A stretch of DNA of 64,000 nucleotides from an uncultured archaeon (GTDB taxonomy: Archaea > Thermoplasmatota > Thermoplasmata > Thermoplasmatales > Thermoplasmataceae), in assembly GCA_000965745.1 (NCBI GenBank), contig CP009479.1, forward strand, positions 736,001 to 800,000, read 5' to 3'. Numbering within the stretch: the stretch's first letter is position 1; each line of letters opens with the position of its first letter. The notes beneath the pieces were generated by a model. That model did no database searches, was not told the DNA's origin, and saw only the letters and a program-made list of their open reading frames with translations. Both the position numbers and the translations under genes were made by a program. Below are positions 17,866-23,777 of this stretch, piece by piece.

Positions 17866-20565
17866 ATGCCTGATGACTTGAGAATTCTTAAACAGATTGA
17901 AGTATCCGGTAAGGAGTACAATTATTTTTCACTGCCAGACCTTGAAAAGAAAGGTTACAATATATCAAAACTCCCCCGTTCAATTAGAATAGTTCTGGAG
18001 TCCCTGATCAGAAACCTTGACGGAAAAGCCGTCAGGGAAAAGGATGTTCTCAATCTCCTGAACTGGAACTCAAAAGACCCCGGCAAAGAGGAAATTCCAT
18101 TCAAAGTTTCCAGAGTTGTGATGCAGGACTTCACGGGAGTTCCTGCAGTAGTTGATCTTGCCGCATTGAGAGACACTGCTAAAAGGCTGGGCAAAGATCC
18201 GTCAATAATACAGCCGCAGGTTCCAGTGGATCTCGTAATAGACCACTCTGTTCAGGTTGACTTTTACGGAACACCCACGTCCATAGAAATGAACACCGAC
18301 AGGGAATTCGAGAGAAACGGGGAAAGGTACCTCTTCCTTAAATGGGCGCAGAATTCGTTCAAGAACCTCAGAATTGTTCCACCATCGGTTGGCATTGTGC
18401 ACCAGGTCAACCTTGAATATCTCGGTAAAGTTGTTATGGAGGCAGAAAGAGACGGAAAAACATACGCGTTCCCAGATACGCTGGTAGGAACTGATTCGCA
18501 CACAACCATGATAAATGGCCTAGGCGTGGTCGGCTGGGGAGTCGGAGGAATTGAAGCGGAGGCTGCAATGCTCGATCAGCCTGTTACTATACTTACCCCA
18601 GAAGTCGTTGGGGTCAACCTGCATGGAAAGTTGAAACCAGGAGTTACAGCGACCGATCTGGTCCTCACCCTGACGGAACTTCTGAGGAGGAACAGAGTAG
18701 TCGGAAAGTTCGTAGAATTCTATGGTGAAGGTGTAACATCACTACCGCTCCCTGACAGGGCAACCCTGTCCAACATGTGCCCTGAATATGGTGCAACGCT
18801 GGCACTGTTCCCTGTGGACGATGAGACACTCAAGTATCTCAGGACCACTGGGCGAAGCGATGAACACGTAGAGCTCATTGAGAAATACCTGAAGGCTCAG
18901 GGTCTCTATGGCTCTCCTGACAGCCTTGATTACAGCCAGGTGATTGATCTTGACCTTAGCTCTGTCACACCCACAGTTGCCGGCCCCAAGCTTCCCAATC
19001 AGAAAGTGGAAATGGGCCATATCAGTAACAGCTTCCTCAACTACATGGAGGGAAACTCGGACATTCAGATGATGGATAACGGCCAGCGGAGCACAACTGT
19101 ATCCCTGAAGAGTGTCCCTGTATCCGTTAAGGGCGAAGATACAAAACTTTCTGATGGAGATGTTGTAATCGCAGCTATCACAAGCTGCACAAACACTAGC
19201 AATCCGCAGGTAATGGTAGCAGCTGGCCTGCTTGCAAAGAAGGCCGCTGAGAAGGGCCTTACGGTAAGCAAGAAGGTGAAGACAAGCCTCGCACCTGGAT
19301 CACGTGTTGTTACCGACTACCTTGGAAAATCCGGCCTTCAGGAGTACCTGGACAAGCTGGGATTCTATCTTGTAGGGTACGGCTGCACCACGTGCATAGG
19401 GAACAGCGGCCCTCTGGATGAGAACATAGAAAAAGCGATAGTCGACAATAACCTCAGCACTGCGGCGGTACTGTCCGGGAACAGGAATTTCGAAGCTAGG
19501 ATACACAAGAACGTGAGAGCCAATTACCTGATGTCCCCGCCGCTTGTTGTTGCTTTTGCTATCGCGGGGAAAGTCACTATCAACCTAGAGAAAGAGCCGA
19601 TAGGGAAAGACAGGGATGGCAAGGATGTCTTTCTGAAGGAAATATGGCCATCTGACGATGAAATATCTAATGTCATTAACGAGACAATAAACGTGAAGAT
19701 GTTCAGGGAGAAATACAAGAATCTGGACATCTACAATGAGAAATGGTCTAAGCTAAATGCTCCAACGGGAACCACATACGACTGGGAAGATTCAAGCACA
19801 TACATAAGAAACCCACCCTTCTTCGACGACTTCTCACCTGACAAGTCTGTAGAAATGACCGAAGTCTCTGAGGCCCGGCCGCTTCTGATACTAGGGGATT
19901 CAGTTACGACCGACCACATTTCCCCCGCTGGTGCCATATCCAAGAACAGCCCCGCGGGAAAGTATCTAATGGAGAACGGTGTGGAACCTGTAGACTTCAA
20001 TTCATTCGGATCAAGAAGGGGAAACCATGAAGTAATGATGCGCGGAACATTCGGGAATGTCAGGATCAGGAACAAGCTTGTGGACAAGGAAGGTGGATTC
20101 ACCCTTCACCTCCCGGATAAGAAAGAGACCACTGTGTATGACGCTGCTATGCAGTACGTGAAGGAGAAAACACCCCTGCTTGTATTTGCCGGTATAGAGT
20201 ACGGGACAGGAAGCTCAAGGGACTGGGCTGCAAAGGGAACCATGCTTCTTGGGGTGAAGGCCGTAGTTGCAAGAAGCTATGAAAGAATACACAGAAGCAA
20301 CCTGATAGGCATGGGTGTATTGCCTCTCCAGTTCAAGGAAGGGGAAGAATTCGGCAAACTGGATGCAGACTGGAACAAGCCCTTTACAGTTAAGGTACCG
20401 GAAAACCTGGAGCCGGGAACTCAGGCAGAACTAAGCTATACGGATAACTCCGGAAACCGGAAGAAAGTGGCTGTTGGCATAAGGCTTGACACGCCGATCG
20501 AGGTTGAATATTTCAAGAGTGGTGGAATACTTCAGTATGTGTTGAGAAAAATCCTGCAAAACTGA
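17866..20565 (+). CDS. acnA: Aconitate hydratase A
   Basis: MQDFTGVP, DHSVQVD, GTDSHTT, AAITSCTNTSN, GCTTCIGNSG, SGNRNFE, GSSRDWAAKG. Confidence 0.98.
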   Translation: MPDDLRILKQIEVSGKEYNYFSLPDLEKKGYNISKLPRSIRIVLESLIRNLDGKAVREKDVLNLLNWNSKDPGKEEIPFKVSRVVMQDFTGVPAVVDLAALRDTAKRLGKDPSIIQPQVPVDLVIDHSVQVDFYGTPTSIEMNTDREFERNGERYLFLKWAQNSFKNLRIVPPSVGIVHQVNLEYLGKVVMEAERDGKTYAFPDTLVGTDSHTTMINGLGVVGWGVGGIEAEAAMLDQPVTILTPEVVGVNLHGKLKPGVTATDLVLTLTELLRRNRVVGKFVEFYGEGVTSLPLPDRATLSNMCPEYGATLALFPVDDETLKYLRTTGRSDEHVELIEKYLKAQGLYGSPDSLDYSQVIDLDLSSVTPTVAGPKLPNQKVEMGHISNSFLNYMEGNSDIQMMDNGQRSTTVSLKSVPVSVKGEDTKLSDGDVVIAAITSCTNTSNPQVMVAAGLLAKKAAEKGLTVSKKVKTSLAPGSRVVTDYLGKSGLQEYLDKLGFYLVGYGCTTCIGNSGPLDENIEKAIVDNNLSTAAVLSGNRNFEARIHKNVRANYLMSPPLVVAFAIAGKVTINLEKEPIGKDRDGKDVFLKEIWPSDDEISNVINETINVKMFREKYKNLDIYNEKWSKLNAPTGTTYDWEDSSTYIRNPPFFDDFSPDKSVEMTEVSEARPLLILGDSVTTDHISPAGAISKNSPAGKYLMENGVEPVDFNSFGSRRGNHEVMMRGTFGNVRIRNKLVDKEGGFTLHLPDKKETTVYDAAMQYVKEKTPLLVFAGIEYGTGSSRDWAAKGTMLLGVKAVVARSYERIHRSNLIGMGVLPLQFKEGEEFGKLDADWNKPFTVKVPENLEPGTQAELSYTDNSGNRKKVAVGIRLDTPIEVEYFKSGGILQYVLRKILQN

Positions 20566-20639: not shown

Positions 20640-21947
20640 ATGTATATAAGTGCTCCACCAGGGACGGTGGAACTGGCCAGGCTTATTATTCCGAAAGATG
20701 AATATGAGAGATTGTCGAGCCTTGGCTTTAACTCCTATGGTGAATCTAAGTCAATGACAATCCTGCAGTTTCTGCGTGATCTTGACTGGATATATATTTC
20801 ATATGAAGAGTCCGAAGTGCTTTCGCTCAAGCCTACCCAGCTGGGCCTGGAGGTATTTGAAAGGGGAGTTGCCGCCGACAACAAGGAAGATCTGGACACA
20901 CTTGTAGAACTCATCAGGAAATACCTCTCTGTTTTCCTTAAAGACGGGCAGAATGTTGCTGAGGTTATGCAGGAACTGGCGGAATATTATCTGAAAATTG
21001 GAAATTATACCCGGGCCATAGATCTGGGTTCCGATCTCATTACGCTCGGCAACGAGCACAATGACTCCAAGGTGCTGGGAAAGGCGCATGATATTTACGG
21101 AGTCATAAATCTCTACAGGCAGGATCTCGATTTTGCTCAGAACCACTTCGAGAAATCGGTTTTCTATGGTGGGCTGTGCAACGATCTTGCTACTGTTGCC
21201 AAGGGGCATGTCGGCCTCGGGTCGGTGAACGGCTACAAACAGAAATTCGAAGAAGCGATAACAAATTTTGAAAAAGCTTTCCTTCTGTTCAAGGAGATAG
21301 GGGACGAATCCGGAATAAACCAGGTTAAACTCAACGAGGCATTCACCTACGCCAACATGGGGGACCTGAACGTGTTCTTCAAGATGAACCATGAGGCAAT
21401 AACTTACTTCGAGTCAGTAGGTGACAAGCAAAAACTTGAGTACTGCTATATCAATGAATCAACTGCTCTTCTGAGCATCGGCAAGATAGACGAGGCAATA
21501 GACAGCATTGTAGAAGCTCACGAACTCGCAAAGGAAGTTGGAAACAAGAGAATTCTTCATATGTCTGGATTGAACATCGCCAGGATCTACGTTCTGACAA
21601 ACAGGCCCGGGGACGCCTATGAATACATACTTCAGGCTCATGAGTACTTCAGGAAGAACTTTGACACTAATTCAGTTGGAGCTTGCAATGACCTCCTCGC
21701 TTCTTATTTCGTTGCAATGAAGGACATGGACACAGCGGCAGAACATCTTGAGAAGATGGAGAAGAACTTCCTTATCAAGAACAACAAGAGGGGGATCGTG
21801 GATGGGTTTGCCTATTTTATAAAGACAATGAAAACTTATTCATACGACGATGAAACAGTCAACAGGAAAATCAAGGAACTTGAAGAAAAGGTTCAGGATG
21901 AAAAGTATAAAGAAATATTCAAACAAAGTTTGGATGAAGAATTATAG
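20640..21947 (+). CDS. Tetratricopeptide-repeat protein with possible N-terminal winged-helix
   Basis: Several ~40-aa TPR-like repeats (e.g. GLGSVNGYKQKFEEAITNFEKA); LKPTQLGLEV wing-like motif near N-terminus. Confidence 0.75.
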   Translation: MYISAPPGTVELARLIIPKDEYERLSSLGFNSYGESKSMTILQFLRDLDWIYISYEESEVLSLKPTQLGLEVFERGVAADNKEDLDTLVELIRKYLSVFLKDGQNVAEVMQELAEYYLKIGNYTRAIDLGSDLITLGNEHNDSKVLGKAHDIYGVINLYRQDLDFAQNHFEKSVFYGGLCNDLATVAKGHVGLGSVNGYKQKFEEAITNFEKAFLLFKEIGDESGINQVKLNEAFTYANMGDLNVFFKMNHEAITYFESVGDKQKLEYCYINESTALLSIGKIDEAIDSIVEAHELAKEVGNKRILHMSGLNIARIYVLTNRPGDAYEYILQAHEYFRKNFDTNSVGACNDLLASYFVAMKDMDTAAEHLEKMEKNFLIKNNKRGIVDGFAYFIKTMKTYSYDDETVNRKIKELEEKVQDEKYKEIFKQSLDEEL

Positions 21948-21975
21948 ATTTGTGGTTTAAAAAGATTATTAAATT

Positions 21976-22089
21976 TTACTCTGCGCAGTAAGATCCGCCA
22001 GTCATTACGAACTTCAGCTTCTGCTTTGGTATTTCAATCTCTTCTATCATTTTCAGTTTTCCCTTCATAGCTATCAAATGAGTTACCAT
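21976..22089 (-). CDS. Putative small peptide (37 aa; 30 aa from Met at 22068) ending GG-SYCAE (not in ORF track)
   Basis: MVTHLIAMKGKLKMIEEIEIPKQKLKFVMTGGSYCAE; purine-rich coding-like composition; T-rich tract after stop; convergent with the TPR gene. Confidence 0.5.
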   Translation of the reverse strand: MVTHLIAMKGKLKMIEEIEIPKQKLKFVMTGGSYCAE

Positions 22090-22427
22090 GGCAAAACTAA
22101 AGACCTTTGTGTGACAGGAAATGCAGTCCCGATACTGTTACATAGACAAAACACTTGCATTATGTATGTGCAAATTTTTATCGTAACTTTTCCAAGGTTA
22201 GATTTCAGTCAAGCCAGTTTTTAAGGCATTACACCTGAAGTTGATATTATATTCTCTTTCGAGTTTATATCATTTTTTTGCATACTGTTGTGTAGGTATG
22301 AACTGTCGAGAAAACCGTCGATATATGTTAAATTGGACGGAATGCGAAATATTTCATGCATAACATCCGTCAATGCACCGAATTCAAAAATCGTCATTTG
22401 AGAAACTAAAGTTATATATTACTGGCA

Positions 22428-23777
22428 ATGTTCCACTTTTGCATGGATGAAGGAGTATCATCTGCGCTGAAACAGCTTGAAAAAGATGGAGTTGGATTCT
22501 TACAGTTACAGTTTACCGATATCCTGGGAGCGGTAAAGACTCTCACAATACCAAAAAACCGTTTTGAGAGTGCCCTGACTGAGGGCGTGGTTTTCGACGG
22601 AAGTTCTGTTGCAGGCTATGCACAGATCGAAGAATCAGATATGAGGGCAATACCGGATCTTTCAACATACACGGTGTTCCCTCAGGGAAACGGATTTTCC
22701 AAAACTGCCAGATACATATGCACGATCCACAACCCTGACGGTGAAAGGTTCAACGGAGATCCGAGGTATGTTCTTGAGAGCGTCCTTTCAAAGCTACATG
22801 AGAAGAAAATGGACTTCTACGTCGGTCCGGAGTTCGAGTTTTTCATCTTCAAACGTGATGAAAAGGGAAATCCCACTACCATACCGAGTGACTATGGAGG
22901 CTACTTTGACAACACTCCCCTGGATGCGGCCAGTGAAATAAGGCAGGAAATACTGATGCAGCTCAACAACCTGGGGTACCAGCCGGAGGCAGCACATCAC
23001 GAGGTGGCTTACGGTCAGCATGAAATAGATCTCAGGTATGGGAAAGCGCTTGTAATGGCTGACAGAGTTGCCATGCTGAAGAATATAATCAAGAACGTGT
23101 CACAGAAGCATGGCATGTATGCAACTTTCATGCCAAAGCCGATAAACGGGGTCAACGGCTCCGGAATGCACGTCCATCAGAGCATTATGAACAGCGAGGA
23201 ATCAACCAACCTGTTCTACGATGAAAAATCGAAGTACGGCATCAGCGAACTCGGACTGCATTATCTCGGGGGGATATTGTCCAACATATCCCAGGGTTCA
23301 GCGATCCTTGCTTCCTGGGTTAATTCCTACAAGAGGCTTATACCGGGCTATGAGGCTCCGGTTTACATTTCGTGGGCCAACAAGAACAGGACAGCCCTTG
23401 TCAGAGTTCCCGCGGGTGTAAGGATGAGAAAGAGGATGGAACTCAGATGCCCGGATTCGGCAGGTAACCCATATCTGCAGTTTGCGGTAATGCTTGGGAT
23501 GGGTCTTGACGGAATAAACAGGAAACTTGAGCCGCCTGATCCGGTCGAAAAGGATATATTCCACATGACCAGCGAGGAAAGGAAGGAGCAAAGGATAGAT
23601 TCCATGCCCGAAAGCCTGGGAGAGGCTCTGCACCACTTCAGAAACAGCAAGCTCATGAAAGAAATACTTGGCGAGCACGTCTTCAACAATTTCATAACGG
23701 TGAAACAGAGGGAATGGGACGCATTCAGGTCACACGTGACCGAATGGGAGACAAACAGGTATCTTCCCATCCTCTAA
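22428..23777 (+). CDS. glnA: Glutamine synthetase type I (start may be 22443)
   Basis: QFTDILG, FDGSS, GPEFEFF, HHEVA, ATFMPKP, NGSGMHVHQS, NSYKRL, ELRCPD. Confidence 0.96.
   Translation: MFHFCMDEGVSSALKQLEKDGVGFLQLQFTDILGAVKTLTIPKNRFESALTEGVVFDGSSVAGYAQIEESDMRAIPDLSTYTVFPQGNGFSKTARYICTIHNPDGERFNGDPRYVLESVLSKLHEKKMDFYVGPEFEFFIFKRDEKGNPTTIPSDYGGYFDNTPLDAASEIRQEILMQLNNLGYQPEAAHHEVAYGQHEIDLRYGKALVMADRVAMLKNIIKNVSQKHGMYATFMPKPINGVNGSGMHVHQSIMNSEESTNLFYDEKSKYGISELGLHYLGGILSNISQGSAILASWVNSYKRLIPGYEAPVYISWANKNRTALVRVPAGVRMRKRMELRCPDSAGNPYLQFAVMLGMGLDGINRKLEPPDPVEKDIFHMTSEERKEQRIDSMPESLGEALHHFRNSKLMKEILGEHVFNNFITVKQREWDAFRSHVTEWETNRYLPIL

Follow-up and report, generated by a model that had tools for sequence, protein, structure and literature searches.

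Regulators built of tetratricopeptide repeats (TPRs) that sense a dedicated micropeptide encoded next to them have been described in Firmicutes and in their mobile elements (PMC10075063). The signature of these RRNPP systems comprises five features: a propeptide of 10-100 aa, its secretion, a receptor of 250-500 aa, the presence of TPRs, and direct neighbourhood of the two genes (PMC10075063). No paper on such a TPR regulator/micropeptide pair in archaea was found in the literature. Here we describe a candidate pair from a 64,000-nucleotide stretch of DNA (the window) of an uncultured archaeon of the Thermoplasmataceae (GenBank assembly GCA_000965745.1, contig CP009479.1, positions 736,001 to 800,000), whose genome is closed (2.23 Mb) and 99.4% complete. 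The candidate receptor/regulator is a 435-aa winged-helix-like and TPR protein (20640..21947, plus strand; supported by its open reading frame (ORF), Pfam and an AlphaFold2 (AF2) model). It is arranged tail-to-tail with a micropeptide gene of 30 codons plus stop (21976..22068, minus strand; protein-coding part 21979-22068; supported by codon bias and a conserved start), the two stop codons lying 28 nt apart. Four of the five RRNPP features are present: a peptide of 30 aa (37 from an upstream ATG), a receptor of 435 aa, TPRs, and genes 28 nt apart. The fifth, secretion by a Sec signal or as an SHP-like hydrophobic peptide exported by PptAB, was not found by hydrophobicity analysis. Because common descent with the RRNPP receptors is not demonstrable, the pair is not filed as a member of that group. 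We nevertheless consider it rather probable that the two genes encode a cognate ligand and its receptor, for which a fold and a binding mode are predicted.

The small ORF is a true gene under selection at the protein level, and it co-occurs with and adjoins the TPR gene in two clades. A 37-codon ORF on its own lies within chance expectation; its conservation is beyond chance. Based on tblastn and ORF listing, the same convergent ORF is found directly past the TPR orthologue in seven further genomes, in which the identity of the TPR protein ranges from 90% to 46%. A preliminary description of the window had assigned 37 codons to the ORF. This extent is corrected here, since it is the second ATG (22068) that is conserved as the start, yielding 30 aa in this genome and 31 aa in other genera; the seven upstream codons are not conserved, and one orthologue starts precisely at the conserved Met, immediately after a stop codon. 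The other elements given there, i.e., the ORFs, the 28-nt stop-to-stop gap and the series E-I-P-x3-L-x2-V-x2-G-G followed by S-Y-C-A-E, are all present as claimed. Among four species of the genus, the 93-nt coding sequence has 1, 4 and 12 variable columns at codon positions 1, 2 and 3, respectively, a third-position bias that indicates selection at the protein level. In the same four species the Gly-Ser pair is encoded by four different codon pairs, and the adjoining spacer (28-60 nt) shows no visible likeness. An Rfam scan of 21800-22500 gave a single match at chance level (E value 0.41), and thus the conserved stretch is not a known RNA; a protein atlas search with the peptide returned no usable match. 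The annotation of Cuniculiplasma divulgatum (CP133595.1) passes directly from the TPR gene to glnA and omits the peptide gene.

A 31-position profile of the peptide was searched against 169 genomes of the order. It matched once per genome, plus a cut fragment in one, in 25 genomes from five genera (E value 1.8e-19 to 3e-8). Among the other genera in the 169 genomes no match was better than E value 0.001, and the weaker matches, where located, fall within long unrelated ORFs. The peptide-bearing genera (g1, g7, g8, g11 and g16 in our numbering) are exactly those with close TPR orthologues (42-90% identity, 430-437 aa), and genera of the family without the TPR gene are also without the peptide. 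In five genera without the TPR gene, glnA does not come after aconitase within the 1.5 kb read. At 23 of 23 loci with the flank present the TPR gene adjoins the peptide gene in convergent orientation, as the preliminary description had anticipated for TPR orthologues, and glnA lies on the other side in 21. This group of five genera is referred to below as the peptide/glnA clade.

Two loci related to this clade depart from the common pattern. In a genome of genus g8 (G010; L008 / L041), the TPR orthologue is broken by an in-frame TAA after ~362-364 codons and the peptide gene is intact; the receptor may be split or decaying there, or the assembly may be in error. In a 50% complete genome of genus g9 (G011; L009), aconitase, a TPR homologue with 32% identity and glnA follow one another as usual. 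The 267-nt gap yielded no recognisable peptide ORF; a 41-codon minus-strand ORF within it has an internal G-G-V-F-D-A-C.

Distant homologues of the TPR protein (21-30% identity; 22-30% in the search) are encoded in three further genera, and the homology extends over residues 39-435 (hhalign probability 100, E value 1e-47). In this sister clade the TPR gene comes after a gene for a major facilitator superfamily (MFS) transporter; the far-side genes, where examined, encode DUF929 and ribosomal S3Ae, and no glnA was seen on the far side of the loci examined. A convergent mini-ORF abuts or overlaps the TPR stop in 13 of 13 sister-clade loci examined, so that direct neighbourhood is kept at every checkable locus in eight genera across both clades. 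The sister-clade mini-ORF ends in G-G (or G-N-G), [ST], [YWPF], [VIS], [WF], and its tails vary among species of one genus (S-P-I-F vs S-Y-I-W; T-Y-V-W vs S-Y-S-F). Judging from the sequences, the short C-terminal tail is the common denominator of the peptides of both clades. At 12 of the 13 loci, (A/G)-G-G-A-G-G-T-G, in one of them in the form G-G-A-G-G-G-G-G-T-G, is positioned ~8-10 nt ahead of an internal in-frame ATG. This internal G-G-A-G-G-T-G element (loci L082-L096) is conserved as DNA across genera whose proteins are <30% identical. Since it resembles a ribosome-binding site, the sister-clade product may be just 11-14 aa. A TATA-like T-T-T-A-A-T-A-A box occurs ~22 nt ahead of the first ATG; a leaderless form of 27-37 aa may also be made, and two products from one locus are conceivable.

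The sister clade keeps the pair with no glnA seen on the far side where examined, and thus the peptide belongs with the TPR gene and not with glnA; a link to glnA alone was rejected because the pair is retained amid other neighbours. It could still be argued that the small protein acts on a neighbour enzyme, glutamine synthetase or aconitase, and that its adjacency to the TPR gene is incidental synteny. Such a role has a precedent in sP26 of Methanosarcina mazei, a 23-aa, initially unannotated archaeal protein that binds and modulates glutamine synthetase (bioRxiv 10.1101/2020.05.06.080432). At all 21 loci read whose contig extends far enough, glnA and the peptide gene are divergent, and no partner has been assigned to the conserved, amphipathic N-terminal portion of the peptide. 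However, sP26 is dissimilar and is not encoded beside glnA, the sister clade retains the TPR gene and mini-ORF with non-glnA genes on the far side where examined, the peptide is missing from genera that lack the TPR gene, and the complex model presented below is strong and specific to the TPR protein in comparison with controls. An enzyme-directed role with incidental synteny therefore appears very unlikely, although a role with glutamine synthetase or aconitase and a role as TPR ligand are not mutually exclusive.

The 435-aa protein matches Pfam TPR_12 (E value 1.2e-17), and its AF2 model, based on 32 homologues, has a mean predicted local distance difference test (pLDDT) score of 91.7 and a predicted template modelling (pTM) score of 0.86, with a winged-helix-like N-terminal domain followed by ~8 TPRs. 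Public relatives of the protein, from Cuniculiplasma divulgatum, a Thermoplasmataceae archaeon and a Thermoplasmatota archaeon, are annotated just as hypothetical or TPR protein. Codon 181 (21181-21183) is CTG (Leu) in this genome and Gln (CAG-type) in the 90%-cluster representative and the six closest relatives, a single-residue strain difference. The N-terminal domain (residues 1-76; 20640..20867, plus strand) was delimited by DSSP of the AF2 model and includes helices H7-14, H19-28 and H35-47, a short H30-33, an initial strand, a two-strand wing and a final helix. This topology, H-H-H-beta-beta-H, is modelled with pLDDT 79-93 within the full protein and 70 when the domain is folded alone. 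Its top fold matches are all winged helix-turn-helix (HTH) regulators (HxlR-type YtfH, MarR, Sso10a and PadR), with weak scores (Z 4-5, Foldseek E value at least 0.13). The domain contains 24 invariant columns, and its profile matches 5 clusters only among 1.84 billion representatives, which marks it as lineage-restricted. The HTH proposed for this region in the preliminary description is thus supported by the modelled winged-helix topology and by best matches with MarR/PadR/HxlR, at weak match scores (Z ~5, E value 0.13). A winged helix is probable as a fold-level lead from the model, and the domain may bind DNA.

The TPR superhelix (residues 85-435; 20892..21944, plus strand) consists of ~17 helices according to the AF2 model and fold matches. 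The recurring Asn of its helix motifs, pointed out earlier from the sequence, corresponds to N232, N272 and N312, and the groove residues K119, G192, S195, G198, Y199, N232 and N272 are invariant in 24 orthologues. The closest protein in the PDB is LGN/Pins, both by sequence profile (E value 2e-7) and by Foldseek (E value 1.6e-7). With VIA-align, the C-degron receptor APPBP2 (Z 27.5, 356 residues aligned) ranks at the top together with subunits of the anaphase-promoting complex/cyclosome (APC/C). RapF-PhrF (PDB: 4i9c; Z 26.6, 329 residues, root-mean-square deviation 4.4) and the phi3T Rap with its pheromone (Z ~26) are practically level with these, at 9-14% identity, and are followed by NprR (Z 23.5), PlcR (20.8) and AimR (20.0). 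In most of the top-ranking structures, the TPR protein carries a bound peptide, degron or partner chain. No RRNPP chain is present among the PDB sequence-profile matches, and since the Z scores tie with those of APC/C subunits, APPBP2 and LGN, homology to the RRNPP receptors cannot be claimed.

The predicted complex of the peptide with the TPR protein has values of 0.80, 0.81 and 0.79 for the interaction prediction score from aligned errors (ipSAE), and the best of three controls reached 0.01; at least 49% of the contacts are common to the runs. The score mark was attained by 58 of 80 solved complexes and by 2 of 110 mismatched pairs, a calibration that is only rough for user-supplied alignments. 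In the model, peptide residues 19-30 lie in the TPR groove, in an interface which includes all seven of the invariant groove residues listed above, Asn232 and Asn272 among them. The lowest-error pairs connect Cys28 to residues 268, 232 and 228, Tyr27 to residues 195, 199, 192, 198 and 235, and Ser26/Gly25 to Asn272, and the 18 residues forming these pairs are less variable than random sets (p ~0.03). Position 268, the top-ranked predicted contact of Cys28, is Tyr, Phe or Trp everywhere except in two genomes with Ser, and the same two genomes carry Ser in place of the peptide Cys28. In the peptide/glnA clade K119 is invariant and the last peptide residue is acidic, which suggests recognition of the end group. 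The pairing of receptor and peptide put forward in the preliminary description is thus strengthened as far as a conserved pair and an in silico complex on N232/N272 (0.80 vs 0.01) are concerned.

Several points weigh against a ligand-receptor pair. The complex score is a model confidence obtained from unpaired alignments, and generic TPR-peptide complexes are part of the training data. The pLDDT of the peptide in the complex is just 50-52, the 35-residue interface taken as a whole is not significantly more conserved than background (p 0.14), and the model gives no explanation for the conservation of the N-terminal two thirds of the peptide. The covariation of position 268 with Cys28 is probably one evolutionary event, and the five genera may be one lineage, in which case the co-occurrence would reduce to one or two events. 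The genes are convergent and hence not co-transcribed. Finally, no Pfam HTH family matched the N-terminal domain, and its winged HTH assignment leans on the weak fold scores given above. Some of these points would equally suit a real small protein without functional tie to the TPR protein, whose adjacency is inherited gene order and whose complex model is a false positive: convergence precludes co-transcription, the five genera may represent a single lineage, and mismatched pairs do occasionally attain the score mark, for which calibration is rough with these alignments. This reading would have to accommodate an arrangement that persists in a second clade despite TPR identities of 21-30% and differing neighbours, three complex controls all at or below 0.01, and the joint change at position 268 and Cys28, and we consider it quite improbable. 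None of the outcomes that the preliminary description had held to be fatal to its proposal, i.e., a small ORF not conserved or not transcribed next to TPR orthologues, or an N-terminal domain other than HTH without predicted groove binding, was encountered.

The C-terminal tail of the peptide is encoded by the codons for G-G-S-Y-C-A-E (21979..21999, minus strand), as delimited by the alignment of 24 peptides and by the predicted contacts. The family pattern of the tail is G, x, [YF], [CS], [VAC], [DE] and a free C-terminus, with a nearly invariant Gly in the 24 aligned peptides. Among the orthologues, no part of the peptide is better conserved than the tail, which is nearly identical across five genera; conservation extends to the N-terminal two thirds, where Lys, hydrophobic and acidic residues alternate. 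The preliminary description had interpreted the Gly-Gly pair as the end of a double-glycine leader and had expected a conserved leader with a variable tail, which is the opposite of what is seen in this clade. The pair is GG in 7 of 24 aligned orthologues and AG, TG, LG, TT or GA in the others. Peptidase_C39 (PF03412) has no match in the closed genome, in a search whose control was positive in 7 of 14 reference genomes. On these grounds, i.e., the unfixed GG, the conserved tail and a genome without C39, we rejected the double-glycine leader. Cleavage releasing the pentapeptide SYCAE, which formed part of the same proposal, is not supported by the model, in which the bound epitope spans the supposed site. 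Since the predicted epitope runs through the Gly-rich segment, this segment looks like a part of the ligand and not like a cleavage site.

The conserved Cys/Ser and Tyr beside glycines in a short peptide might also be taken to indicate a precursor of a ribosomally synthesized and post-translationally modified peptide (RiPP) or of a modifier, with chemistry at Cys, Ser or Tyr, cleavage in the Gly-rich segment or exposure of a C-terminal Gly-Gly, and with the TPR protein as recognition or scaffold component. Some RiPP clusters do contain TPR proteins, and the 435-aa protein matches the NCBIfam models HaaT (13.6 vs 1125 bits) and FxSxx-system TPR (19.5 vs 300), in both cases weakly and far under the cut-off. 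However, YcaO (PF02624) and SPASM (PF13186) have no match in the genome, with controls positive in reference genomes. No maturase gene lies beside the pair in either clade (the neighbours being aconitase/glnA and the MFS transporter), although maturases beyond YcaO and SPASM were not searched. Together with the missing C39 and the unconserved GG position, these results leave the RiPP alternative of the preliminary description with scarcely any likelihood, and the fact that Ser can replace Cys when the TPR groove changes in compensation is easier to reconcile with recognition than with chemistry. Mimicry of the C-termini of cellular proteins was also considered. The sole full-size protein of the genome that matches the tail pattern is an amidohydrolase of 522 aa ending in I-Y-S-A-E (G000:C1:1744936-1746504, minus strand; locus L107); a single real protein with a similar four-residue end equals the number expected by chance, and mimicry was rejected.

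Whether the ligand leaves the cell bears on a further alternative, RRNPP-type quorum sensing. In this scheme the peptide or its tail would be exported, build up outside the cell, be re-imported by an oligopeptide transporter and bound by the cytoplasmic TPR regulator, which would be the first archaeal case. The sharing of four RRNPP features, and a predicted ligand made of the C-terminal residues, as in Phr, PapR, SHP and AimP, agree with such a scheme. So do the sister clade's MFS transporter, which always adjoins the pair, the pherotype-like variation of tails within one genus, and an 11-14-aa product that would require no processing. In contrast, neither a Sec signal nor a hydrophobic h-region was detected in any of the 29 peptides, in which the longest hydrophobic run is 2-4 residues. 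The peptide of the window has a grand average of hydropathicity (GRAVY) of -0.28, with 6 Lys/Arg and 4 Asp/Glu dispersed along its length. In the peptide/glnA clade the pair is flanked by neither exporter nor protease genes, and the window contains no exporter, in accordance with the reservation already expressed in the preliminary description about exporter and Sec signal, and the genome is without C39. Moreover, a tail nearly constant over five genera and a conserved N-terminal stretch of 20 residues are unlike a disposable leader. Quorum sensing of this type is therefore doubtful, and we are equally hesitant about its two corollaries, release via the MFS transporter of the sister clade and evolution of the winged-helix/TPR sensor independently of the Firmicutes receptors. 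In the peptide/glnA clade an intracellular peptide is judged more likely than a secreted pheromone: conservation extends over all 30 residues, and neither a secretion signal nor an exporter or processing enzyme could be detected.

For a cognate ligand-receptor pair the following mechanism is proposed, in which we infer DNA binding, the target genes, the direction of the switch and the location of the peptide. The 30-aa peptide would be expressed under a promoter and a ribosome-binding site of its own, located in the intergenic region that is common with glnA. Its tail (Gly, small, Tyr/Phe, Cys/Ser, Val/Ala, acidic residue and free carboxylate) would enter the concave TPR groove in extended form and be held by the ladder of invariant Asn232/Asn272 and by a Gly/Ser/Tyr-lined pocket for the aromatic residue. 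Occupancy of the groove would then switch the N-terminal winged-helix domain and change the transcription of nearby genes, namely the peptide gene itself, probably glnA or aconitase in this genome, and the MFS transporter in the sister clade. By analogy, the logic is probably that of an RRNPP receptor.

The gene order of the locus is aconitase (17866-20565, plus strand), TPR, peptide and glnA (glutamine synthetase; 22428-23777, plus strand). The inter-stop spacer (28 nt, 21948..21975) is AT-rich and contains a T5 run on the minus strand directly past the peptide stop, which may act as a terminator. On the other side, the peptide gene and the divergent glnA have in common an intergenic region of ~340 nt. 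A 58-codon ORF in this region (22221-22397, minus strand) is probably not a gene, judging by sister species, which keep only its first few residues alike. The ribosome-binding site position of the peptide gene (22069..22078, minus strand) is degenerate in this genus, and in other genera the upstream alignments place T-T-G-A-G-G-T 7-9 nt ahead of the ATG. Within the 130 nt before the gene, the alignment of 19 upstream regions revealed conserved blocks. They include a T-G-T-C-A block with near-invariant columns at about -50 (22109..22118, minus strand), a TATA-like element next to it at about -40, and a C-A-C-C-T-A-C-A-T-A-A core motif at ~-100 that is conserved across genera and is a candidate operator (22152..22171, minus strand). 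The latter is a 9-bp inverted repeat, perfect in two sister species and imperfect here; two genera have a C-G-G-A-A direct repeat upstream of the peptide gene. RNAalifold found no consensus RNA structure in the 19 upstream regions, and thus the blocks are read as DNA elements and not as a riboswitch-like leader; they are candidate promoter/operator elements. The 12-mer G-C-A-C-A-T-A-C-A-T-A-A has exactly two copies in the 2.2-Mb genome, at 19796-19807 (plus strand) and 22160-22171 (minus strand), 2.4 kb apart, the second being the conserved motif ahead of the peptide gene. The copy in the aconitase gene encodes a conserved S-T-Y-I-R and is kept in other genera, and since coding explains this conservation the shared 12-mer is probably a coincidence.

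Eight acidophilic genera of the Thermoplasmatales thus carry a concrete pair, and one of the carriers, Cuniculiplasma divulgatum, is in culture. If binding is confirmed, a micropeptide-controlled transcription factor joins the known modes of archaeal regulation, and the position between aconitase and glutamine synthetase suggests that it possibly touches the carbon/nitrogen balance. The pair would also allow one to test an independent origin of RRNPP-like logic outside bacteria. Archaeal intergenic spacers, moreover, conceal real genes of 11-31 codons.

Among known systems, sP26 resembles the peptide in being a tiny conserved archaeal protein with a link to nitrogen metabolism, given here by the divergence of the gene from glnA. 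It differs in being leaderless, in its location beside the ACS operon, in its sequence and in having no TPR partner. IF7 and IF17 are further small proteins acting on glutamine synthetase. LGN/Pins (GPSM2) in complex with NuMA, Inscuteable or Frmpd peptides offers an eight-repeat superhelix with an extended peptide on an Asn-rich inner surface; it is, however, a eukaryotic scaffold without a DNA-binding domain, and its ligands are segments of large proteins. The C-degron receptor APPBP2 and the carboxylate clamps of Hop and PEX5 recognize an extreme C-terminus, as is predicted here, but serve ubiquitin ligation, chaperone docking and import, whereas no ligase or chaperone context is evident at this locus.

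The Rap-Phr systems provide some of the best structural matches to the TPR domain and share the extended peptide inside the superhelix, a feature predicted for the present pair; in Rap-Phr, conserved Asn residues touch the peptide backbone. The N-terminal domain of Rap, on the other hand, consists of three helices and binds proteins rather than DNA, while Phr carries a Sec signal and is encoded downstream of rap in the same transcript. The Rgg/SHP and ComR/ComS systems differ from the archaeal pair in their XRE-type HTH, as opposed to the winged-helix-like domain, and in sequence, no homology being detectable; SHP and ComS are hydrophobic, whereas the peptide described here is charged and amphipathic, with no PptAB/Eep-like partner evident. 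One group of SHP genes is convergent with its rgg gene, and these propeptides are without a Sec signal. In overall design the likeness extends to a receptor of ~300-450 aa that combines a DNA-binding domain with TPRs, cytoplasmic in streptococci and predicted here, to an adjacent, separately transcribed and usually unannotated gene for a peptide of ~20-30 aa, and to a ligand formed by the C-terminal residues in the concave face of the TPR domain, as the model predicts for this pair.

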